A stretch of DNA of 64,000 nt from Eledone cirrhosa (taxonomy: Eukaryota): NCBI GenBank assembly GCA_964016885.1, contig OZ024740.1, forward strand, positions 118,172,001 to 118,236,000, read 5' to 3'. Positions 2,149 through 61,380 of the stretch are shown here, in pieces. The position numbers were made by a program, and so were the translations under genes. Below the pieces are notes generated by a model. The model was not told the DNA's origin and ran no database searches. It saw only the letters and a program-made list of their open reading frames with translations. Within the stretch, counting starts at the first letter, position 1, and every line of letters begins with the position of its first letter.

Positions 2149-3090
2149 CAGATATGATATTCAAATGTACACACACATATATATATATATGTGTGTGTGT
2201 ATATATATATATATATAATTAATACAATAACAGAGATAGTTTAAAGCTAAACTCTGACTGGTAACCATCTCACTCAACAAACATTAGGTTATATTAAAAT
2301 ATAGACCCAATTTAAGTGTTTGGGGTGCTAACAATATGTATAATATGGAAAAACCAGTTGTATTATTTTATGAGATATAATTAAAGTTAAAGTATATCTA
2401 TATATATATATATACAGTGAGAGAAGGAGAGTGAGACACACACATAAGCCACACAAAAGCACGCACACTTGCACACAGTTACGCACACGTATACACTTAT
2501 TATATGCGTGTGCGTTTGTGTGTGAGTGTCAAAATATTTTCATAGGAGAAACAGTTTAAAATGCCGAATCACTATCACCCTTTTTATGAGGCTTTGTTGC
2601 AAATATTTTTTGTTATATTATTTGATATTAAAATCATTATGAAGAATTTTTTTAATATTGAAGTATATTATTGTGTTAGAAAATATATATTCGTATACAA
2701 AAGAAAAAAATGAAGCAAGAGGAAAAAGATAGCAGAAAAGAAATGTATGTAAAATAGATAAAAATGTAAAAGAATTTTAGTATGAAACTTAGTTTTTATT
2801 TTAACAATATTGCAGCATTTTTAATCACATCATACCAAAATATTATATATGCTTAACAATACTTTTGATTCGTTTGGAGGTGAAGCGGGGGAAAAAGTAT
2901 TTTGTTAAGATATTTTAGATTTTTTAAGGAGAATTCTATTGCCGTACAACATATTAATATATCAAACAACCTGTTCCTTCTCATCCAACAAATGAACTGT
3001 ATTTTTTCTTTCAGTGCATCTGTCTAAATACACAAACTTGCATGATAGAATAACTTGCTTTCTTTTCTCATCCACCAAAAGAGCAAAAAT

Positions 3091-3281
3091 AATTGTTTCT
3101 ACTTTTGGCACAAGGCCAGAAATTATCTCAGTGTATTACTGGTGCTTTATTTTATCGACCCCGTAAGGATGAAAGGCAAAGTTAACCTCGGCGGGATTTG
3201 AACTCACACCCAAAAGGGCCGTAACTCTTTGCTGGAAAGCATGGCGTCCGACCCTCTACCGATACTGGCAATCCACCGCCC
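3091..3281 (-). mobile_element. tRNA-derived SINE S1
   Basis: Reverse complement of S1. Imperfect TSD caaaagagcaaaaataat / caaaagaacaataataat. Confidence 0.85.
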
Positions 3282-11274: not shown

Positions 11275-11655
11275 AATTGTTTCTACTATAGGCAAAAACC
11301 AGCGATTTGAGGGAGGGGGAAATGCTTTATTTTATCAACCCCGTAAGGATGAAAGGCAAAGCTAACTTCGGCGAGATTTAAATTCAGAACGCAAAGAGCC
11401 GTAACTCTATGTCAAGAAGGATGTTGTCCGGTGCTCTGTCTATACTGCCAATCCGCTGCCCTTCATAATTGTTTCTACTTTAGGCACAAAGCCAGCAATT
11501 ACCCAGTACATTACTGGTACTTTATTTTATAGACCCCATAAGGATGAAAGGCAAAGTTAACCTCGGCGGGATTTGAACTCAGACTGTAAAGGCACGTAAC
11601 TATGCGTTAAAGCATGGCGTCCGACTCTCTACCGATACTGCCAATCCACTGCCCA
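11275..11655 (-). mobile_element. Two tandem S1 SINEs
   Basis: Two consecutive reverse-complement S1 copies (about 11275-11462 and 11467-11655). Confidence 0.8.
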
Positions 11656-17766: not shown

Positions 17767-18199
17767 TTATTGACGAACGTAGAAATGAGTACTCAATACC
17801 GAAATGAAGTATAAATATTCTTTATTACAACTATGTGGTGAGACTTGTTACTCTACAGTTTCACCTGTGCATTCATCGCCTGATTTTAACAGAAGCGCTA
17901 GTAGGATCTGCTTTTTGGGGTGGAAAATGTACATCAAAGCTCTGTGACCCGTGTTGAGCTTGAATGTTTTACCTAGCGGGAATTGTTGGAGACGGGTAAC
18001 GGCCGATACGATGGCAAATGCTTAGCGTTTGATACTTGACCTTTTAGATTCAGTAGATGTCAATTTGTTTATTACATATAGGACCGGATGAAAGTTTACC
18101 CACCACGCTGTTCATTGAGGAATCCGTCATCAGCTCGGTGGGTAGTTTAGGAGGAAATGGTTCTTAACATAGTTCGTCTTTAATATTCACAAATTCAAG

Positions 18200-26459: not shown

Positions 26460-26652
26460 AACGAAGGAATTGTGGTAAGGAACCAGATGGACCATAACGT
26501 ACCAAAGTACTTAATACTTAGTGTAGTAGAGTGGGTAATAGGAACAAGTATGACCCCGACGGCAGAACTCAAGCCGTTTCGACGGCTATTTCTGTCCAGA
26601 AATAGCCGTCGAAACGGCTTGAGCTCTGCCGTCGGGGTCATACTTGTTCCTA
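26460..26652. mobile_element. Solo pLTR fold-back, family B (related to the 47-51 kb PLE)
   Basis: Palindrome taggaacaagtatgaccccgacggc...gccgtcggggtcatacttgttccta with an ~80-nt extra left tail. (TA)n flanks. Homologous to 50724-50860. Confidence 0.85.
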
Positions 26653-29600
26653 TATATATATATATACACTTTTACTCCAAAAGTTGGAACACCTGTAAAA
26701 TGCATGATACTTAAAAAAGAAAGAAACACTGGATGTAAAAATCCTGTTTTTTGCTTTAATTTAATTATTGTGGTTATGTGATTAAAATAAAAAAAAATAT
26801 AATAAATTGTTTTGCTTCAATTTTTATACTTCGTTCTCATTTCGATTTCTTCACCTTAAGATTTTTTTTTTATATCATTTCAATTTTTAGTGAAATTTAG
26901 GTGCAAACTACTTTTTGATTAAAATCTGTTAGTTTTTACCGAATTGTCTCATATAATTATATAATGTAACCTTTCTATCTACATTAGACATGATGGCTCC
27001 TGCTTGCAACTTCATGATACAAGTTGTTATTTTAGAATCATAAAAAAGAAAAAGAGAAAGAATGAAGATCTGACATTCCTTTAATCACTACACGCAGAAG
27101 CGTTAACCAGAATCAAGAAAAAAATTGGTTTCAAGCTACAAACTTAATTCAACGGAATATGCGTTCCGCAGATAATTGCCAAGGAAGGCTCATAAACTAG
27201 TCTCTTGCAGCGTGTAACACACCACCATTATTTCCTTACTAAAGCATTTCACTATGAGTGCTGTAGGAACATAATACAGAGACATCATTAGAAGGTGCTC
27301 AAGTGAATCCTGTATCTGTTACAGAACAGAATTTCATTTCAAAACAAAAATGCAACAAAACAATACTGGAGTTATTAAAGTGTTCTGGCTCTCTGTAATC
27401 TGAATACAAATCCCATCAAGGTCATCTTTACTTTTCATCTTTTAAGGATTGATAAAATAAAGTAACTGGCCAGTGCGGTGGACTGTCGGAATTTTCTTAG
27501 CACCGCGTGATAGGCCTTGCAGTATTTGCTCTGGATCTTTGCCTTCTGAATTCAAATTCAGCTGCAGATCTCCTTGAGTCGGAGATTTAATTCAACATTA
27601 ATTTTAACACCTCTGCAAGACCCTTGGGTGTTTTTATTGTGTCCATTCTGGTACAAGTGTCATGGCCATCTCTGCCGCCTATCAATTTCAACAGAGGCCT
27701 GAAAAGGCTCATGGGTGAGGCTTTTCCCTCCCTAACCAAGAAAGACTTTGCTGACTGAGGCAATTTCTTAAAATGTATAACGAAAAGAACTGTTGTTTTA
27801 GCAAAATCCTTCATGCTAGTCTGAGTCGAGATTATCCCACCCATATGTTTAATATAAATGTCTGAAAATAACAAAGGAAAATCTACATAAATATAGCTTC
27901 CAACTACAATAATATTTGGATGTCTGAATATTTTGACAACTACGACGTTACACTAGGCTTATTCTTTTAAAACGTCATCACTGTATTATATTACTATGTA
28001 CACATTTTACAAAGACATACTATTCTTATATAACAGGACTCTATAGTTACACCAAAGACGTGATAACATGTCTGCTGCAAGCAACATCATAAAATGCATC
28101 CAATATATTCTGTAAAATGTTTGACATTACAAAGGTCATCCAGTCGTAGAAATCTTGCAAAACATGACAACGTCTCAAGTCCTGATACCACAACAAAATG
28201 CAGCCAGTACACTATGTAAAATTGTTGACCTTAGGAAACACACCAAGCATTAGAAATTATGCAATAACTGAAACGAATGTAAACGGTGAGCCATGGTTTC
28301 TAGTCCGTCTATGAGAATGCATGCTCTCTGGGAAAGTAAACGTAAACTAATGGTAATGAATACAAAAAAGATTGGGAAAATTAGGAGCAGCTACTTAAAG
28401 AGGAAATTTCTGACATTAAAATGAAGATTAATTTTAAAAACAAGATATCTATGCCAAAAGCATTTTCATTGTACTATATTAACTGATGTGATTGCACCTT
28501 GAACAATTAAGAATTTAGGAAATAATTTAGATAGAGAAAGGTAGATATGAAATTAGATAAAGTAATAGTAAAAGGTGGAAGAGAGCCAGAGAGATAGTGT
28601 GTGTACGTATCTACACGTGTTTATAATTATCCACAGCAAACTAAGAGAAGATCTCATCTTATTTATTTTCTGTCTCAAATTATTTCTGATACTGTCAAAT
28701 AAATTATTTCTTATCTATTTATTTATTTATTTATTGTTTAAATTTCATTATTTTTACTAAACATCCTAAGCTTTTGCTATGAACATATTATTTACTCATC
28801 TATCTCATTGTTTATTAGTTTATGTCCTTTTGATTGTGTGTATATACATCTACGTGCATGTATGTATTTGAAGACATACATACATTTGTTTTTGTATGTA
28901 TGTATATATGTATCCATCTGTATGTATGTTATATTATATATCACTTCTACATATACACGTGAGAATGTACGCATGGATGGGTTTGAAGAAAAACTTCTGT
29001 TTGTGTATGCTTTGTATGCATGTATATGTTATATGGTTATAAATCACTTCTATACATACACACGTGTATGAGTTTCTGCAGTACATGGTCAAAGGTGTCA
29101 ATCTTTCACTCCAGATAAAGATTCAAATTGAGCCAGCCATCTATCTAAATTGTAGCAATCCAACACAAAGACTAATTTCTGCCATCCAAATGCCATAAAC
29201 ATTAATTGCCTAAATTATTTCTGGAATCTTAAGTTTTACATTTTCTTTGTAAATATAAAGAAAAAAAAAGAGATAAGAAGCAACTACGAAGCGTTATGTG
29301 AAAGACAATCAGCAATTAACTGTAGTAACATTTAAACCATCAATGGTGTATACAAGGAAAATGAATTAGTTTGAAGAAACATATTTGCATCCACAATAAA
29401 TTTAATTTCTGAACTGATAGTCATCTGATTATTAGCTAAAATATGTATTTTTATTATCTCTATTCATTCTAGCAGTTTCTTTTACAGCATGTCATTACCA
29501 AATAAAATAGTTTACTCAGTTCCATACAAAAATAAAATAAATAAATAAAATATACAGTGTTTCGATAGACAGACAAAGTTAAGTATTTTGTTTATTAATT

Positions 29601-34110: not shown

Positions 34111-35675
34111 TGGATTAAGAGTGGGGTTGTAGCCAAAAGCTCAAAATATTTACAGAGCCCAAAATTAATATTTTGCTACCAAATATGTTTGGTGCAAGGT
34201 TCCCGTTTAAATTTTGGGGTGGGTGAGTGTCGCATGCAAGTTTAATCTACCCCATGCACCATACTCTGGACAAGAGACATTGAAAGACATAAGTAGTCAC
34301 AAATTAACCAGCAATACCATAAGTAAAATAAGGTGTTAACCTTCGTTCATAATCATGTTATCAAATACATTTTCTTTTTCTTCAATATTTAGAGTAAATA
34401 GAAAAGAAACGAACATGTAGCTGCTTGGTTTCTTTCTATTTACAATGTATATTATAATATTAGTTATATTTTATTATAGACGAGGAAATGTTACTAGTAT
34501 AACGATTTGAATTTGAATTATTATAATTTTAATCCAGAAATAGTAGGCACTCAGTGTATTATACCTACACCATTATTGCTATAAGATCTTTGTACCTTAG
34601 CCATATCATCTCTGTAGTTCATGGGCACAATTTGTGAGTGAAAGTTTCACTAGTTCATGTGTATTCTTTTGTAGTCAAATGCAATGCATAAACCTATGTT
34701 AAAAATTAAATTAATATTCAATTGTTACGCAATGTCTTTTAATGGCCATAATATATTTAGTGTTGCATGAAGTGTGCTGTAGATCAGATAAGATTGAAAA
34801 TCACCATATTGCATTTTATCTTGTCTTGCAGCACTCCAAGTTCAGATACTGCTCTATTTGATACTAGCCTCTTTTTGCAGTTTATTAAAATACGTACTAC
34901 TTTGACTGTCAGCTAGTCTTTGTAGACTTTGGACACAGAGATTTTGAGCAGAACCAGCATCTTTAGTATAGATGCAATATTACACAATCACTGTTGGATG
35001 GAATTCTTGTACAACTGAATTATCAACAAATCCTGTATGATGTGTTTACATGTAGAAAGAGACATCAGTGAAAATCAAGGCTATGAGATTCTGTAATGTA
35101 GTCTTTGACTATATATGAAATACACGAGGACAACTGACAATAATTATTTTCATCACAACCAATGGAGAAAACGGATAAATCATAGTACAGATCTAAATGC
35201 TTTTTCTAGAATGTCTAACAAGACTGTAGCACACTTTTAAAATTATGGTTAAATGGTTTGCTATTTTGTTACTAAAAAACATTTAGACATAATTTGTGAT
35301 GAATTAGAAACAACTAGAAGAAGCATAGTTGCATTGTCTACAAGATTGAATATAAAAATAAGGTTTGAGATATTGTATACATGAGCCCAGAGTGTGAATT
35401 CATACATCTGAGATTTAGTTGTATAGATTCTTTAGTTGCAATATCTAACGAGGATATATATTTACAATTATCGAAACAACACAATTGATAGCCACAAAAC
35501 AAATGTTAACCCTTTTGATTCCATGTGAAAGGCAAGAAAATGTGTAGATAGATTTTAGATATTTCCTTTGCTTTTCCCTCTCATTGTCCAATATTGCCAA
35601 TGTTCTCTGTTCAAATACTCAACTGTCAAGAAATCTTGCAAAGAAACAGATTTTCAAACTGCTTTGTGTGGAAAT

Positions 35676-35864
35676 AATTGTTTCTACTTTTTGCACAAGG
35701 CCAGCAATTACCCAGTGTATTACTGGTACTTTATTTTAACGACCCCGTAAGGATGAAAGGCAAAGTTAATCTCGGCGGGATTTGAACTCAGAATGGCAAG
35801 GGCCGTAACTCAATGCGTCAAAGCATGGCGTCCGACCCTCTACCGATACTGCCAATCCACCGCC
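35676..35864 (-). mobile_element. S1 SINE with TSD
   Basis: Full S1. TSD tgtggaaataat on both sides. Confidence 0.9.
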
Positions 35865-45756: not shown

Positions 45757-45945
45757 GCGGCGGTGGATTGGCAGTATTGGTAGAGGGTCGGACGCCATGC
45801 TTTGACGCAAAGAGTTACGGCCCTTGCCATACTGAGTTCAAATCCCGCCGAGGTTAACTTTGCCTTTCATCCTTACGGGGTCGATAAAATAAAGTACCAG
45901 TAATACACTGGTAATTTGATGGCCTTGTGCCTAACGTAGAAACTA
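45757..45945 (+). mobile_element. S1 SINE (further copies at about 45385-45530 and 47188-47320)
   Basis: Full S1 within an (ATT)n tract. Confidence 0.85.
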
Positions 45946-46029
45946 TTATTATTATTATTATTATTTTGGCTGTATTGTTAGAGCATCGAAAAAATGCTTC
46001 ATGTCATAGAGTTACAGCCCTTTAGGCTC

Positions 46030-47185: not shown

Positions 47186-47354
47186 TCATGGCCCTTGCCA
47201 TTCTGAGTTCAAATCCCGCCTAGGTTAACTTTGCCTTTCATCCTTACGGGGTCGATAAAATAAAGTATCAGTAATGCACTGGGATAATTGCTGGCCTTGT
47301 GCCAAAAGTAGAAACAATTATATATATATATATATATATATAGGAACCAGTAAG

Positions 47355-47448
47355 ACCCCGACGGCTGACCTCAAGCCGTTTCGACGGCTAATTCTGGACT
47401 AAATGAAAATTTATCCTGGTATTTAAATAGCCGAGCTTCTCAAGGGGT
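47355..47448 (-). ncRNA. Variant hammerhead ribozyme (U3-A8 core) in the 3' pLTR
   Basis: ACCCC-UUGAGAA-GcuCGGCUA...UAGCCGuC-GAA-ACGGCU-ugagguc-AGCCGU-C-GGGGU. All three stems pair and the triplet is GUC. Confidence 0.7.
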
Positions 47449-48566
47449 AATTCCATATATGGTCAAAGTGATTGTCAAAAGTTAGTAGTAATTTTGTGAT
47501 GGCAAATTAGTAGGGGAGATGGTGGCTAAACCTGCCAGTAGGAGAAAAGGGGGAGGGGTGGAGTAGACCCAATCATGCGTTGGTAGTGCCGGCTACAGCT
47601 GGGCATGAGGTCAAGGAAGATACTGGGAGGGGGAGGGGGAGTCGAAACGGCAGGTAGAACAATGAGGGGTAAAAATATATATATGAAAGAAAAAATACTG
47701 AGAGTGATGAAAAGCGAATAAGTGTAAAGAAAAAGGAATATATAAGCAAGTTCTACGACCTAAGTCTCTAGCTATTGTTAGGCTAGATAAATAAAAAAAG
47801 AATGAAAGAAAGAAAGAAAGAAAGAAATAACGAAATAAGTAAATAAACTAGGTGGGACGGAATAGGAAAGGACCCTTTTAAAAGGTATAAGTACGTAAAT
47901 CATACGGTGACGGGTCAACAAATGGGGCCAAAGTACTAAAGACACTACCACGAAATAAATAATAAAGGTTTCTACCCCGGGCACAAGGCCAGCAACCAAC
48001 CAGTGCAGAAAAGTGAACTAGTACGAGATAATAATTCTGAGTCCCAAAAAAAATATACTAATGCTAACTCTAAAGGTATCGCCACGCTACAAAAGTTCTT
48101 ATACAAGCTACATGAAAAGTTCGTACGAAGTAAAGGTAGAATACGGAAAAATAAATTCAGAATCCACCCCGCCCAAAAGAAAAGAGAAGAAAGAAATACT
48201 GAAACGAGAAATTAAGGCATAAGTGCCACTAAGAAATATAGAAGGCACGGAAAAAAGGAGGAGCGGTCGGAAAAGGGGGCAAGTATCCGAGGTCTAACAC
48301 AACTGCTATAAAAAGCGGAGTCCGCCAAATCTATCATAGACTAGGGGAGGGGGTGCTGAGGCTACAAGGGGCCAAGGAGCAGCCTCGGGTGGGCGAGAAA
48401 AAGATGCCGACAAAGAAGAAGAACTGGGGTAGAAGGACTAAGGAGAGATGGGGGGTAGAAGGGAATAAAGGAAGCGATAAAAGAATAAAAAGAAGATCTT
48501 ACGTCTCCCTTGGCAAGTAGGGGTTACCCATTGCAAAATCGGCAAGTGGGGTGTTATAGCCCTAGT

Positions 48567-50632
48567 CTACCCCCCTCCCGGGTCATTATGGGGTTTGAGA
48601 AGTTTCCTCCGAGCATAAATTGCACGGACGGCGTCCTCCCGTGTAAGAGTTGGCTCTGGACAGTAATCTCCAAGTGAGATCATAGGTGATGTTGTTGTCC
48701 TTGAGGTCCCATATGTGGCCCGAAAGTGTAGTGGCGTGACACCGGGCCGGGTTTCGGAAGGTATGTCTATGTTGGTATAGCCAGGTCTTGAAGTCACATG
48801 CGGTTAGTCCTATATAAGCTTTGTTGGAGGTATCCGTCCTCACGTTGCACTGGTAGATCACATTACGGTCTCTGCATCTATTGTCGAGTGGGCAAATGGA
48901 TCTATCCGGACAGTTGCACCTCCTGGTCGGCTCTCTACTGCTATTTAGGTTATTTCTTCCATCGGGGTTGAGTTTTTTGTTGTTAGAGGAGACGATGTTT
49001 TGTGCGAAGTTTGGTGTAGTGCTGTAAGAGAGTTTGATGGTATTTTTGTTAATTATGTTGTGGTAGCGGTGTTGTAGTGGGAAGTGTTTTTCAATGAGCC
49101 TAAAGAATATTTTCCCGATGGGAGTTGTCACCTCTGCGTTGTGGGGAGGATTGAACCATGTTACATTGCGTGAGCGGCGGTGTCTCCTGCTGGTTCCGCT
49201 AATGAGAGCTGGACAGTAGGATATTTCCTCCCGGAAACCACTCCGCTTGAGGGCCTGGTTGTAATAAGGCGCATGTTCATCGAATATCCGCTCATTAGCT
49301 GACAAACGGGATATGCGGAGGGAGATGTTTTTGACCAGGTTGTTGGTGATGTTCCTAGGATGGTTTGATCGGCGGTGGATGTAGTGCAGGTTGTCATTAG
49401 GTTTCCTGTATGGGTAGTACAGGTCGTTTTCGAGGTCGAGGGTCACGTCCAGGAAGTTTACTCGGGTCGGGGACGTTTGTTGGGTTATTTTAAATCCCCA
49501 ATCGCGGAAGAAGCTGATTAATTGTTACCGGACCCGATCTGTACTACTGGGGTTGTACCCTTTAAGGGTAAGGAGCCCATCATCACGGTACAATCCACCA
49601 CCGAATGCAGGAAACATATCGGTGCATTTGGCTATTAGGAATAATCCTATAAGATCTGTGAGCTACGCCGAATCCGTGGCGCCCATGCTGACGTCGAAGG
49701 GTGAGTCGGGAGCTCTTTTTATCCATTTAGAGTTGTCAAAGAGTAAGACTGTCTTCCTGGCGTGGAGGATGATTTTTCTTTCCTGGTCGGTGATGGGCAC
49801 AAGTGTTTCGGCGAAGTCCAAGGCAGCAGTAATTAGCGGTAAGGTGATTGAAGCATAGTAGCTCTCTATGTCGAACTGTATGAATTTAGTGTCTCGTTTA
49901 TCCTTCATATTGCTGAACCATGAGATTACTTCCTGGGTGTTGATCCATAGGCTAAGTCGGGCGTGTTGCTTGACTTTTGGTATCACGCGGTCTAGGATTT
50001 TTTTGCTGATTCTCCCTATGTCGGACTTCGTTGGGTTAATAAGCCTGATAGAGGGTTTGCGGTCAAAATCGGATTTATGGTCCTTCAGTGTGAAGTATGG
50101 TGTCCGTGGGTCTAGGGGTTCCGTGCGGTCGGCGACCCCGAGGCTGGAGGTAATTTGTTGTCCATCTCGATTTATGTCCTCGATGCATGAGTGGTGGGCC
50201 TTTTTATAGGTGGAGTTTAGGCTGCTCCTGATCAGTGTGTGGTATCTGTCAGGGTTGACAAAGTATAGGTTCCCAGTTTTATCCGAATGCACCATGATGT
50301 CATTGGTGTTATCATACTCTGTTAAGTTGCTACGGAGTTTTTGTAGGAATCGGTTGTGTCTGGGTTTGAATTTAATGTTCTTGACCAGTTGGAAGAGGTC
50401 ATTCTCGAAGGGTGAGAGCAAAGGGTTCGGGGGGGGGGGGATTTGTAGGTAGTAAATCCGAATCTCTCCTTGGTGCCGTGGTCCTGGTTGTCGCACTATC
50501 TGTCATAGAAAAAAGTTCTCCATCTAAGTCTTTTCGCAAATAGATCGATGTTTTGCGTGAGCATCCGAAGGTAAATTTTTTCGGTGGGATTGGGATGTTC
50601 TTGGTAGAGAAGTCGATGTTGTGTTTTCGCAT
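48567..50632 (-). pseudogene. PLE RT plus GIY-YIG endonuclease ORF, disrupted
   Basis: MRKHNIDFSTKNIPIP start; FIQFDIESYY; MGATDSA followed by a premature stop at about 49663; GGGLYRDDGL; CNCPDRSICPLDNRC; NVIY..AYIGLT; CNLCSEE. Several frameshifts. Confidence 0.92.
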
Positions 50633-50817
50633 GGTGCGGGTGAACGAAATTGAGCTTAGCGGAAAAGTCTGGATACGGCGTGGTAGGATCGGAAAGTGCT
50701 CTACTATGGGAATAGGAGCTAGATAACGAAAGAAATGTGGTAAGGAACCAGGTGCACCATAACGCACCAAAGTACTCAATACTTAGGGTAGTAGAGTGGG
50801 TAATAGGAACCAGTAAA

Positions 50818-50911
50818 ACCCCGACGGCTGAGCTCAAGCCGTTTCGACGGCTAATTCTGGACTAAATGAAAATTTATCCTGGTATTTAAATAGCCGAGCT
50901 TCGCAAGGGGT
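50818..50911 (-). ncRNA. Variant hammerhead in the 5' pLTR (core UUGCGAA, probably inactive)
   Basis: Same fold as 47355-47448 with A6 changed to C. Confidence 0.55.
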
Positions 50912-51105
50912 AATTCTATATATGGTCAAAGTGATTGTCAAAAGTTAGTAGTAATTCTGTGATGGCAAATTAGTAGGGGAGAATGTGGCTAAAGCTGCCA
51001 GTAGGAGAAAAAGGGGAGGGGGTGGAGTAGACCTACTCTACTACGCTATGTATTGAGTACTTGGGTGCGTTATGGTCCACCTGGTTCCTTACCACATTTC
51101 CTTCG

Positions 51106-51143
<38 letters not shown>

Positions 51144-51146
<3 letters not shown>

Positions 51147-54100
51147 TATAGACATAGAATATTCGAAAATATTCTGTATGTTTATAATAAACATTTTGAA
51201 GACCTAATCGCTATAGAATAGAATACGTCACGTATTACAATTAGATTCTCGATAAAAGCAAGGGAAGTAAGTCTACGCGTTTCATTCTTGTTAGAATTCA
51301 TCAGGACTACATATCCAGTGCTTTTATCGAGAATGACACAGCTAGAGACTTATAGAATACTTAGCTGTGTACAGGAACTGGTTTGAAAGAGCGGTTGCCG
51401 GTCCGGCAGAAATTAGAAATTGGAATAAATGCTCTGAAATAGCGATATATATGTGAATATAGACATAGAATATTCGAAAATATTCTGTATGTTTATAATA
51501 AACATTTTGAAGACCTAATCGCTATAGAATAGAATACGTCACGTATTACAATTAGATTCTCGATAAAAGCAAGGGAAGTAAGTCTACGCGTTTCATTCTT
51601 GTTAGAATTCATCAGGACTACATATCCAGTGCTTTTATCGAGAATGACACAGCTAGAGACTTATAGAATACTTAGCTGTGTACAGGAACTGGTTTGAAAG
51701 AGCGGTTGCCGGTCCGGCAGAAATTAGAAATTGGAATAAATGCTCTGAAATAGCGATATATATGTGAATATAGACATAGAATATTCGAAAATATTCTGTA
51801 TGTTTATAATAAACATTTTGAAGACCTAATCGCTATAGAATAGAATACGTCACGTATTACAATTAGATTCTCGATAAAAGCAAGGGAAGTAAGTCTACGC
51901 GTTTCATTCTTGTTAGAATTCATCAGGACTACATATCCAGTGCTTTTATCGAGAATGACACAGCTAGAGACTTATAGAATACTTAGCTGTGTACAGGAAC
52001 TGGTTTGAAAGAGCGGTTGCCGGTCCGGCAGAAATTAGAAATTGGAATAAATGCTCTGAAATAGCGATATATATGTGAATATAGACATAGAATATTCGAA
52101 AATATTCTGTATGTTTATAATAAACATTTTGAAGACCTAATCGCTATAGAATAGAATACGTCACGTATTACAATTAGATTCTCGATAAAAGCAAGGGAAG
52201 TAAGTCTACGCGTTTCATTCTTGTTAGAATTCACCAGGACTACATATCCAGTGCTTTTATCGAGAATGACACAGCTAGAGACTTATAGAATACTTAGCTG
52301 TGTACAGGAACTGGTTTGAAAGAGCGGTTGCCGGTCCGGCAGAAATTAGAAATTGGAATAAATGCTCTGAAATAGCGATATATATGTGAATATAGACATA
52401 GAATATTCGAAAATATTCTGTATGTTTATAATAAACATTTTGAAGACCTAATCGCTATAGAATAGAATACGTCACGTATTACAATTAGATTCTCGATAAA
52501 AGCAAGGGAAGTAAGTCTACGCGTTTCATTCTTGTTAGAATTCATCAGGACTACATATCCAGTGCTTTTATCGAGAATGACACAGCTAGAGACTTATAGA
52601 ATACTTAGCTGTGTACAGGAACTGGTTTGAAAGAGCGGTTGCCGGTCCGGCAGAAATTAGAAATTGGAATAAATGCTCTGAAATAGCGATATATATGTGA
52701 ATATAGACATAGAATATTCGAAAATATTCTGTATGTTTATAATAAACATTTTGAAGACCTAATCGCTATAGAATAGAATACGTCACGTATTACAATTAGA
52801 TTCTCGATAAAAGCAAGGGAAGTAAGTCTACGCGTTTCATTCTTGTTAGAATTCATCAGGACTACATATCCAGTGCTTTTATCGAGAATGACACAGCTAG
52901 AGACTTATAGAATACTTAGCTGTGTACAGGAACTGGTTTGAAAGAGCGGTTGCCGGTCCGGCAGAAATTAGAAATTGGAATAAATGCTCTGAAATAGCGA
53001 TATATATGTGAATATAGACATAGAATATTCGAAAATATTCTGTATGTTTATAATAAACATTTTGAAGACCTAATCGCTATAGAATAGAATACGTCACGTA
53101 TTACAATTAGATTCTCGATAAAAGCAAGGGAAGTAAGTCTACGCGTTTCATTCTTGTTAGAATTCATCAGGACTACATATCCAGTGCTTTTATCGAGAAT
53201 GACACAGCTAGAGACTTATAGAATACTTAGCTGTGTACAGGAACTGGTTTGAAAGAGCGGTTGCCGGTCCGGCAGAAATTAGAAATTGGAATAAATGCTC
53301 TGAAATAGCGATATATATGTGAATATAGACATAGAATATTCGAAAATATTCTGTATGTTTATTCTAACAAGAATGAAACGCGTAGACTTACTTCCCTTGC
53401 TTTTATCGAGAATCTAATTGTAATACGTGACGTATTCTATTCTATAGCGATTAGGTCTTCAAAATGTTTATTATAAACATACAGAATATTTTCGAATATT
53501 CTATGTCTATATTCACATATATATCGCTATTTCAGAGCATTTATTCCAATTTCTAATTTCTGCCGGACCGGCAACCGCTCTTTCAAACCAGTTCCTGTAC
53601 ACAGCTAAGTATTCTATAAGTCTCTAGCTGTGTCATTCTCGATAAAAGCACTGGATATGTAGTCCTGATGAATTCTAACAAGAATGAAACGCGTAGACTT
53701 ACTTCCCTTGCTTTTATCGAGAATCTAATTGTAATACGTGACGTATTCTATTCTATAGCGATTAGGTCTTCAAAATGTTTATTATAAACATACAGAATAT
53801 TTTCGAATATTCTATGTCTATATTCACATATATATCGCTATTTCAGAGCATTTATTCCAATTTCTAATTTCTGCCGGACCGGCAACCGCTCTTTCAAACC
53901 AGTTCCTGTACACAGCTAAGTATTCTATAAGTCTCTAGCTGTGTCATTCTCGATAAAAGCACTGGATATGTAGTCCTGATGAATTCTAACAAGAATGAAA
54001 CGCGTAGACTTACTTCCCTTGCTTTTATCGAGAATCTAATTGTAATACGTGACGTATTCTATTCTATAGCGATTAGGTCTTCAAAATGTTTATTATAAAC

Positions 54101-54171
54101 ATACAGAATATTTTCGAATATTCTATGTCTATATTCACATATATATCGCTATTTCAGAGCATTTATTCCAA
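51144..54171. mobile_element. 311-bp HHR-containing tandem array (non-LTR retrozyme-like) with inverted block
   Basis: Units start at 51144, 51455, 51766, 52077, 52388, 52699, 53010 and 53321 (partial). Orientation flips at about 53361, and about 2.6 inverted units run to 54171. (TA)n on both sides. Confidence 0.9.
53659..53702 (+). ncRNA. Minimal hammerhead of the 311-bp unit (representative copy)
   Basis: gtagtc-CTGATGA-attct-aaca-agaat-GAAA-CGCG-TA-gacttac. A second plus-strand copy has CTGATGA at 53976. Seven copies lie on the minus strand in 51144-53320. Confidence 0.9.
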
Positions 54172-54189
54172 TATATATATATATATATA

Positions 54190-54377
54190 AGCAAGGAGGT
54201 GTGGTAAGGAACCAGATGGACCATAACGCACCAGAGTACTTAATACTTAGGGTAGTAGAGTGGGTAATAGGAAAAAGTTTGACCCCGGCGGCAGAGCTCA
54301 CGCCGTTTTGACGGCTTTTCTGGACGTCCAAAAATAGCCGTCGAAACGGCTTGAGCTCTGCCATCGGGGTCAAACTT

Positions 54378-54382
<5 letters not shown>
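54190..54382. mobile_element. Solo pLTR fold-back, family B
   Basis: Same structure as 26460-26652. (TA)n flanks. Confidence 0.85.
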
Positions 54383-54409
<27 letters not shown>

Positions 54410-59835: not shown

Positions 59836-61380
59836 AAAGACTTAATCAATACCTTTGCTAACCTAAACCTTAAAATTACTATAGATACGAATCTTACTAA
59901 TACTAACTTTCTTGATATCAATCTTGATGTACTTACCGCCTCTTTTAAACCTTATCATAAACCTAATGAACATTTAAGATATATATACAAAGAGTCATGC
60001 CATCCCTCTATAGTCTTTAAAAATCTTATTCCTAATATTAGCCGTAGGATTTCTACCTTATCTTCGTCTATAGACATTTTTAACAAATTACCCCTTATTA
60101 TAATTGGTGGTGGATTGGCAGTATCGGTGGAGGGTCGGACGTCATGCTTTCCAGCATAGTTACGTCCCTTTACGATCTGAGTTCAAATCCCGCCGAGGTT
60201 GACTTTGCCTTTCATCCTTACGGGGTAGATAAAATAAAGTACCAGTAATGCACTGGGTAATTGCTGGCCTTGTGCCTAAAGTAGAAACAATTATAATAAG
60301 GCCCTCAATAACAGCGGCTTCACCTTTCTAACACTAAACACAGTAACAAGAAAAGAAAATTATTTGGTTTACACCAGCCCTTCTCTCTAACTGTTAAAAC
60401 TAATGTAGGATGAAAATTCCTCGACCTCCTTCACAAACATTTTCCCCTTAATCATAGATATAATAAGATATTCAATAGAAATGTGGTTAAAATCAGTTAC
60501 TCTTGCTGCCCATCAAAGAAAACTAAAATTACCAACTCTAATAGTACTAAAGTAAATCCAGGATGCAGTTGCAGGAAGCCGTAAGAATACCCATTACAGG
60601 GTAAATGTAATACCAAATCTATTGTGTATGAGGCCAAATTGACACCAATGATTAATAACCAGCCAGCCAGGAGTAAACGATATGTTGGCATGACTCCGGA
60701 CAGATTTAAAACCAGGTATTATGCACATGTCGCTTCTTTCAAACACCCTGAAAAAAGAACAGCAACGTTGCTGGCAAATAAAGTGTGGGAGTTTAAAGAC
60801 ATAAACATTCTATACACTATTTATTGGTCTATTTTAGACCATTCAAGAGAATACCAAAGCGGCACAAAGAAATGTTCTTTGTGTACTACGGAAAAATTTA
60901 TAATTCTCCAAAACTTGAAAACCCATTGTCCCAACTCTAAGACCGAGATCTTTAGATGTTGTCCGCAGCTGAAATCGCATCTACTTTTTAACTGGATTAA
61001 CATACCAACGATTACTCAACACCTTGAGCTTCTTTATTATCACGCCTTCCGCTCACTACCAATTTCATTACCTTATGAACACATACTTCTACCAATATAT
61101 ACTTTTTCTCCCTCATCTCTTTCTATATATCATTTGACTTATATCCCGCCCCCTACTATCTACCATACCTTTAATACGTACACACCCACCACCTTTATCC
61201 TTTACCAAGATCACCTTTTAACTATATAGACTTATCCAGAACTCATCACAAATACTTACTCTCTACTACTACTTTTACACCCCTTTTCTCCCTTATCTGT
61301 TCTTAATAATTGTTTTTATTATTTTATTTCAGTTTTACTCCCCTTTGTCCTTACTTACCTACTAGGTTTTTAAGTGTACT
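59836..61380 (+). pseudogene. 5'-truncated PLE (RT thumb, linker, GIY-YIG) interrupted by a SINE
   Basis: TNFLDINLD..FKPYHKPNE; CSCRKP*EYPLQGKC; IVYEAK..RYVGMT..FKTRYYAH; CSLCTTEK; then a pyrimidine-rich 3' region. Confidence 0.85.
60105..60292 (+). mobile_element. S1 SINE inserted in the PLE
   Basis: TSD ttataat. Removing the SINE restores PYYN|KALNNSGF. Confidence 0.9.

Follow-up and report, generated by a model that had tools for sequence, protein, structure and literature searches.

The minus strand of positions 47355..47448 in the 64-kb window (the whole stretch of DNA analyzed here) carries a hammerhead-type (HHR) motif, which we read, with a probability of roughly 0.7, as the hammerhead of a Hydra-type Penelope-like element (PLE) pLTR in which U3-A8 takes the place of C3-G8 and for which a cut after C47360 is predicted. 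The motif is laid out as ACCCC / UUGAGAA / G-CU-CGGCUA / 37-nt loop / UAGCCG-U-C / GAA / ACGGCU-UGAGGUC-AGCCGU / C / GGGGU (Table 1). The closing pair G10.1-C11.1 is followed by an internal loop, CU facing U, and then by 6 bp, and loop 3 of this copy is the 7-nt UGAGGUC. All invariant bases of a type I HHR are present (U4 G5 A6, A9, G10.1-C11.1, G12 A13 A14, A15.1-U16.1 and C17) and are also the modal state in five subfamilies of the element; among the invariant positions, the window motif departs from a canonical HHR only at 3 and 8, where it has U3-A8 instead of C3-G8. A first-pass annotation had described a full type I HHR on this strand, and every element, coordinate and string that it listed was correct.

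Table 1. Positions of the hammerhead-type motif, its host element and related end pieces in the 64-kb window.
Feature	Position	Strand	Basis or remark
Hammerhead-type motif of the 3' pLTR	47355..47448	minus	sequence; sole descriptor match in window; chance estimate; family conservation
Stem I, 5 bp	ACCCC 47448-47444 + GGGGU 47359-47355	minus	sequence
Core UUGAGAA = U3 U4 G5 A6 G7 A8 A9	47443-47437	minus	sequence
Stem II including loop 2	47436-47383	minus	sequence
G10.1	47436	minus	pairs with C11.1 at 47383, closing stem II
Stem II, 6 bp	CGGCUA 47433-47428 + UAGCCG 47390-47385	minus	sequence
Loop 2, 37 nt	47427-47391	minus	sequence
G12 A13 A14 (GAA)	47382-47380	minus	sequence
Stem III, 6 bp, from A15.1-U16.1	ACGGCU 47379-47374 + AGCCGU 47366-47361	minus	sequence
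C17, triplet GUC (G16.2 U16.1 C17)	47360	minus	sequence
Predicted scissile bond	between 47360 and 47359	minus	HHR numbering
3' pLTR	47340..47569	minus	direct repeat with 50803-51033; ends ...CCUAU, then (TA)n at once
5' pLTR	50803..51033	minus	direct repeat with 47340-47569
5' pLTR hammerhead copy	50911-50818	minus	core UUGCGAA, A6C at 50903; predicted inactive
Internal region, broken RT + C-terminal GIY-YIG ORF	47570..50802	minus	motif reading
(TA)n microsatellite, 3' flank, target site	47319..47339	.	sequence
(TA)n microsatellite, 5' flank	51106..51146	.	sequence
Inverted copy of first ~65-70 nt of internal region	51034..51105	minus	reverse complement of 50802-~50735
Mirror-image pair of terminal ~57 nt, related subfamily	26538..26653	.	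turn at 26594/26595
Mirror-image pair of terminal fragments, older subfamily	54267..54383	.	turn at 54325/54326

The host element consists of two pLTRs in direct repeat (95.7% identity over 231 bp; repeat unit 3.46 kb) around a broken RT + GIY-YIG ORF, all within (TA)n, in agreement with the earlier placement of the hammerhead in a PLE pLTR. Pieces of the ORF lie in at least three frames of the minus strand (50782-50399, 50502-49663 and 49524-48586) and contain LRWR, SDKTG (DKT), FDIESYYASI, CNCPDRSIC (CxCX5C), VIYQCNV...AYIGLT (GIY-YIG) and CNLC, in the order RT and then GIY-YIG endonuclease, the frame being broken by frameshifts. Pfam gave no match for the ORF pieces or for three full-length homologues. 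Intact homologues of ~700 aa in the protein databases share 38-56% identity with 59-98% of the query covered, and one of them, P0003, carries RWK, DKT, YRDD, CxCX5C (CNCRKPNSC), GIY-YIG, CxxC (CNLC) and CxH (CRH). An ESM-Atlas look-up, taken as a lead only, points to GIY-YIG/PF26215 clusters of animals.

Hydra-clade PLEs are described in the available text of Craig et al. (2021, PMC8557442) as short elements inserted into (TA)n, with DKT for DKG, RWK and a CxCX5C linker, and with CxxC near a conserved E as a further feature. The family studied here combines an RT and C-terminal GIY-YIG with pLTRs, shortness, DKT, RW(R/K), CxCX5C, CxxC and insertion into (TA)n, the last being common to the window element, the mirror-image pieces described below and the flanks of family copies. 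Judged by these motifs, the host is probably a Penelope-like element with Hydra-clade hallmarks, its clade membership being read from the motifs. The hammerhead motif lies ~20 nt from the element's 3' end and therefore sits where a Hydra-clade hammerhead is expected. The inverted piece at 51034-51105 directly adjoins the beginning of the 5' pLTR, which thus lies between the arms of an inverted repeat; it is the inverted 5'-truncated piece typical of PLE insertions, and the same inverted piece of the internal region is also found at 26462-26537. The window element itself is dead, with a broken ORF, A6C in the 5' pLTR and a private change in loop 3.

Family copies were collected from the 3.0-Gb assembly, where a first look gave 2,468 candidate copies of the pLTR, the best 40 of the 2,468 being 97-100% identical. 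Of the 35 copies in the alignment, 34 have the core UUGAGAA; the one that differs is the 5' pLTR copy of the window element, for which UUGCGAA had rightly been noted and in which A6C is private within the 35-copy alignment. In the same alignment a G at 47369 is private to the window's 3' copy, the other 34 having C, and changes the family loop 3 from UGAGCUC to UGAGGUC. Position N7 is G, U, A or C, each in many-copy sublineages, and position 10.2 in the internal loop varies between C, U and A. UUGANAA is thus the state of the family and not a product of decay in the window copy.

Genome-wide counts of the core, taken as exact 18-mer matches, are independent of any tree. In the ...GCUCGG context they gave 1,075 U3/A8, 1,065 C3/A8, 11 U3/G8 and 2 C3/G8, and in the ...GUUCGG context 1,077 U3/A8 and 22 U3/G8 exact matches, together with 512 matches having C3 and either A8 or G8 (among the 100 of these listed, 98 A8 and 2 G8). 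Taking both contexts together, U3-A8 has 2,152 exact matches and U3/G8 has 33 copies, and C3 with a mismatched A8 amounts to ~1,570 copies (1,065 + ~500) in three successive subfamilies. A search for C3 and G8 with the family stem II strand and any stem I gave 14 matches genome-wide, two of which (L129 and L132) do not align with the family pLTR; the aligning copies are rare A-to-G changes in C3.A8 backgrounds. G8 as a lineage state was not found in the superfamily (33 U3/G8 and 14 C3/G8 pattern matches), and a canonical C3-G8 ancestor within the superfamily was dropped, as C3/G8 copies are few and the aligned ones are nested in C3.A8 backgrounds. Position 8 never covaries: A8 is fixed and position 3 toggles between U and C. 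The proposal of a compensatory U3-A8 pair therefore holds relative to canonical HHRs and fails within the superfamily, where ~1,570 copies carry C3.A8. Single G8A or C3U changes strongly lower HHR activity in classical mutagenesis.

The pattern of constraint was assessed on the modal states of subfamilies A, B, C, D1 and D2. Positions constrained by the HHR were variable in 2 of 46 cases vs 15 of 48 unconstrained ones (Fisher p=0.0009). Stem I (0/10) and the stem II pairs (0/14) did not vary; among the stem III pairs 1 of 12 positions was variable (the distal U-A becomes U.U in D), and among the invariant core positions 1 of 10 (position 3). Variation was seen in N7 (1/1), the internal-loop positions (1/3) and loop 2 (13/37), and reached 70/120 in the 120 nt upstream in the pLTR. 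This pattern, above all the free N7, is what a hammerhead predicts. The first-pass annotation had made its reading depend on a family consensus that keeps UUGANAA and the three stems, and such a consensus was found (34/35 copies and 2,152 matches, against 70/120 upstream positions that differ). The covariation that it had proposed to test in a family alignment did not appear. Across A, B, C, D1 and D2 no compensatory stem-pair change was seen, the stems being invariant at this level, so that the evidence is one of conservation and not of covariation; a double change, C15.2G with G16.2C, was seen in a single copy (L061). Loop 3 (0/7 variable) and the 3' part of loop 2 (its last ~10 nt) are as conserved as the core, which is beyond what the HHR needs, and some other constraint therefore also acts.

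To order the subfamilies, three samples of copies were drawn. Sample 1 was taken by position on contig 1 (20 C3/A8, 8 UUGAUAA, 2 UUGAAAA, 10 of 11 U3/G8, 20 UUGAGAA and 20 C3/GUUCGG), sample 2 consisted of the best matches to the window copy, and sample 3 of the best matches to a diverged copy (4,134 candidates, 81-84% identity). The tree (FastTree, 277 nt, masking of the seven core columns, old D group as root), which has the limited support of short repeats, formed a ladder from D1/D2 through E/F, B and B0 to A and C. Along it the core is UUGAAAA in D1/D2, the oldest group, CUGAGAA in E/F (with GUUCGG) and in B (with GCUCGG), UUGAGAA in a B-like background in B0, to which 10 of the 20 sampled UUGAGAA copies belong, and UUGAGAA and UUGAUAA in A and C, the youngest. 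Mean pairwise divergence was measured on 135 nt, since the 277-nt segments are contaminated by non-homologous flanks, and was 0.020 in A, 0.025 in C, 0.046 in B0, 0.051 in B, 0.142 in E/F, where two subfamilies are pooled, and 0.085-0.099 in D, an underestimate because these were best matches and not a random draw.

U3-A8 is present in the oldest (D) and the youngest (A, C) lineages, and from the order of the ladder it follows that position 3 was U, then C, then U again, with A at position 8 throughout; an alternative root inside the C3 part would instead imply two independent C-to-U changes. It is possible, if doubtful, that the superfamily represents a natural mutational series of the 3-8 pair, from U3-A8 (D) to C3.A8 (E/F, B) and back to U3-A8 (B0, A, C). 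If that series is true, either the A.C pair is catalytically tolerated in vivo or cleavage is dispensable for PLE retrotransposition, and in the latter case the reversion to U3-A8 would show only weak selection.

The signal from plain folding predictions was weak. The MFE structure of the window copy (-23.6 kcal/mol) is an alternative nested fold and its centroid an HHR-like fold; with the HHR pairs enforced and the core open, the energy was -22.6 vs -23.6 kcal/mol. The HHR fold was 2.4 to 7.5 kcal/mol worse than the MFE in other young copies, and an HHR-type fold was itself the MFE in an old D2 copy. The folding z-score was -0.66, with 49 of 200 shuffles folding as well. The octamer AGCCGUCG occurs twice, once as the stem II 3' strand with UCG and once as the stem III 3' strand with C17 and G1.1 (47385-47361, minus), and CGGCU is also present twice in the motif; the stem II 3' strand can thus pair with the stem III 5' strand, which is mutually exclusive with the HHR. 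This non-hammerhead pairing is the MFE in young copies. Since stem II can form before stem III has been transcribed, co-transcriptional folding should favor the HHR.

The 6-bp helix III hairpin may permit monomeric folding, and the first-pass annotation had suggested a monomeric activity that would set this motif apart from the usual minimal PLE HHRs. In the form typical of the family, helix III/loop 3 (ACGGCUUGAGCUCAGCCGU) comes close to being self-complementary, and its homodimer was predicted at -30.7 vs 2 x -7.1 kcal/mol for the hairpins. The G at 47369 in the window copy breaks the GAGCUC palindrome and weakens the dimer to -21.2 kcal/mol. With a quasi-palindromic helix III of such strong dimer potential, the monomeric claim is not supported.

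Related end pieces are found elsewhere in the window as two mirror-image pairs that turn inside loop 2 and are without the core; of these copies, at 26.5 and 54.3 kb, the first-pass annotation had said that they fold back inside stem II and lack the core. The pair at 26538..26653 has the stem II 3' strand, GAA, stem III and the cleavage site, and is without the 5' core. The regions 26462-26653 and 54220-54383 are mirror-image insertions in (TA)n, in which an inverted piece (the start of the internal region and the last ~57 nt of the pLTR) stands head-to-head with a direct copy of the last ~57 nt, the turn being no more than 1-4 nt away from the G in the loop 2 sequence GUCCAG. In four public contig runs from one study, k-mer depth was 10-15x higher over 47345-47404 (the last ~57 nt) than over the rest of the pLTR. 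Position 3 was polymorphic in the same four runs (U3/C3, seen as A>G at plus-strand 47443, at ~1/3 of the depth in three runs), as was position 10.2 at 47435. Four other contig runs gave no alignment to the stretch. Depth and polymorphisms in these contigs reflect copy structure, not transcripts.

The surroundings of the element hold further repeats. Two head-to-head tandem arrays of a 311-bp unit (51134-53362, 7.2 copies, 99%; 53361-54172, 2.6 copies, 100%) begin in the (TA)n beside the element's 5' end and look retrozyme-like. Most of their units contain a canonical minimal type I hammerhead whose helix III is palindromic (AGUC CUGAUGA AUUCU AACA AGAAU GAA ACGCGU A GACU). Other families contribute additional hammerhead-like motifs with a canonical CUGANGA at 360(-), 689(+), 1468(+), 12850(-), 44270(+), 44820(+), 54498(-) and 58205(+), none of them matched in Rfam at gathering score; low-quality matches of the relaxed script, for example at 17770 and 41678, may be chance. 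Immediately next to the 3' (TA)n of the element is an unrelated, dispersed SINE-like repeat of ~130 bp (47190-47321), which has further copies at 1098-1234, 3089-3206, 11465-11583, 35674-35804, 45819-45964 and 60176-60298 (89-95% identity), and ARAGORN found no tRNA in it.

The first alternative to a hammerhead of the Hydra type is that the motif is a hammerhead-derived relic which has lost cleavage and whose hairpins are kept as an RT 3'-end signal or a dimerisation site; the stem II arm, the near-palindrome of stem III/loop 3 and the alternative AGCCG/CGGCU pairing would be the candidates for such hairpins. Several observations speak for it, among them that C3.A8 lineages are as prolific as U3-A8 ones, that the invariant loop 3 and the 3' part of loop 2 are kept beyond catalytic need, that the terminal ~57 nt are so much more abundant by themselves and form mirror-image insertions, and that the doubled AGCCGUCG and CGGCU create a competing fold that is the MFE. 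In another PLE, HHR mutants were without effect on in-vitro insertion, according to the available text of PMC11167929. However, the unpaired core bases UGA, A9, GAA and C17 are invariant although a signal made up of hairpins only would have no use for them, N7 is the only one to appear as all four bases, and the youngest lineages have the paired U3-A8 state. We therefore consider a relic of this kind unlikely.

The second alternative is a repeat that merely happens to fit a relaxed hammerhead description, and the searches with general models bear on it. The first-pass annotation had held that a motif search would miss this site, which is the case: the pLTR lacks CTGATGA, and Rfam at gathering score gave no hammerhead anywhere in the 64-kb window. 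At E<=10, Rfam gave no hammerhead on 47250-47550 (6 chance-level matches) and none among 94 matches on four family copies, two of them natural C3-G8 copies; most of the 94 came from microRNA models that matched TA repeats and palindromes. The canonical minimal HHRs picked out in the window by our relaxed script likewise escaped the gathering scan, and the Rfam null thus carries little weight. An HHR descriptor (C3-G8 or U3-A8 core, G10.1...C11.1, minimum lengths of 4/4/3 bp for stems I/II/III, at most 3 nt in the internal loop and at most 90 nt in the stem II region) matched a single site on both strands of the window, the minus-strand 47448..47355. In 852 Mb of first-order Markov sequence of window composition there were 26 loose matches, or 0.004 per window, with 1 match at 5/5/5 bp and 0 at the motif's own 5/6/6 bp, so that chance is no reasonable explanation. 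Despite the latitude of the earlier reading, which admitted a loop 2 of 37 nt, an internal loop and a core that is not canonical, the ordinary folding z-score and the lack of an Rfam hammerhead match, a chance resemblance is very unlikely given this background rate, the coincidence of the location with the HHR site of Hydra-clade PLEs and a variation pattern that fits HHR constraints.

HHRs are nearly universal in most PLE clades. Minimal HHRs have been reported in PLE pLTRs, and those of metazoan PLEs show low in-vitro activity (Cervera and De la Pena, 2014, PMC4209133). The same source, as far as its available text goes, describes U3-A8 as a natural covariant of PLE HHRs, found in the Cercyon PLE hammerheads of S. 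mansoni with ~1,300 matches. The U3-A8 pair is isosteric with C3-G8. It is thus in line with the literature that C3-G8 can be swapped to U3-A8, as the first-pass annotation had stated, and our full-text literature search for a U3-A8 hammerhead returned PMC4209133 only. The motif described here is like the Cercyon HHRs in having U3-A8 for C3-G8 in a PLE pLTR at high copy number, and in keeping G10.1-C11.1, a long helix II and a short helix I (PMC4209133). In contrast, the Cercyon HHRs are minimal, with little or no helix III where ours is stable, and belong to a different PLE clade in a different animal phylum; the C3.A8 sister lineages present here have no counterpart described for Cercyon in the available text of PMC4209133.

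Within the Hydra clade, all 26 rows of File S2 (Craig et al., 2021, PMC8557442) place an HHR with core ctgaNga close to the consensus 3' end, with a stem III of 3-4 bp closed by a 1-3-nt loop and a loop 2 of 3-10 nt. Like these, the present motif is of type I, lies near the 3' end of a short C-terminal GIY-YIG PLE in (TA)n and combines a stem I in the range of 4-7 bp with a self-complementary helix III, and it shares with several of these families the "core + G ... C + GAA" layout and a stem II of ~7 bp (PMC8557442). Unlike the 26 rows, which have C3-G8, its core is U3-A8, or C3.A8 in the sister lineages; its loop 2 has 37 nt with a hairpin of its own, and its helix III has 5-6 bp with a 7-9-nt loop. 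The text of Craig et al. also notes that Naiads do well in the absence of canonical HHRs (2021, PMC8557442).

Fungal and protist PLEs have HHR variants with a large helix III (PMC4209133), which the present motif resembles in its stable helix III, which may permit monomer folding. Those HHRs belong to telomeric PLEs that lack an endonuclease and have canonical cores, whereas the helix III found here is also a near-palindrome; one of them was shown to cleave as a single motif (PMC4209133), and the motif here is predicted to cleave. A palindromic helix III/loop 3 is described for PLE hammerheads considered to act as dimers (PMC4209133), and the near-palindrome of the present family agrees with that design. 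The available text of Frangieh et al. (2024, PMC11167929) reports C3G/G8C rescue in a Poseidon element; it also reports ribozyme mutants without effect on in-vitro insertion, so that HHRs were dispensable for insertion in the one system reconstituted, and no RNA-seq reads ending at the cleavage site. Taken with this literature, both the U3-A8 core and the type of host element are already published, and the long loop 2 and helix III are size variations.

If the motif works as a Hydra-type hammerhead, stem II would fold first in pLTR read-through or pLTR-ORF-pLTR transcripts, followed by the stem III hairpin or, via the near-palindrome, by a two-copy helix III duplex, and then by stem I. The predicted cleavage would give ...GUC with a cyclic phosphate and GGGGU... 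with a 5'-OH. RNAs of several units would be trimmed in this way, and circles of the kind proposed for PLEs might form. The ...CCUAU tail, which lies further 3' and would be annealed to (TA)n, would be the place where reverse transcription begins. We predict measurable self-cleavage of the U3-A8 form at slightly less than even odds. Because the C3.A8 lineages reached ~1,570 copies, it seems that these elements can spread without strictly requiring catalysis.

Taken alone, the motif is what one would expect to find in an element of this known type, and it is a fairly ordinary member of its kind. Screens based on CUGANGA or on Rfam undercount hammerheads in such genomes. What the family adds is a Hydra-type hammerhead in which the core has U3-A8, helix II is enlarged and helix III is long and nearly palindromic; its sister lineages, similar in copy number, are told apart mainly by core position 3. 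Its natural variants, U-A, C.A and the rare C-G and U.G, offer material for asking whether cleavage matters for the spread of these elements.
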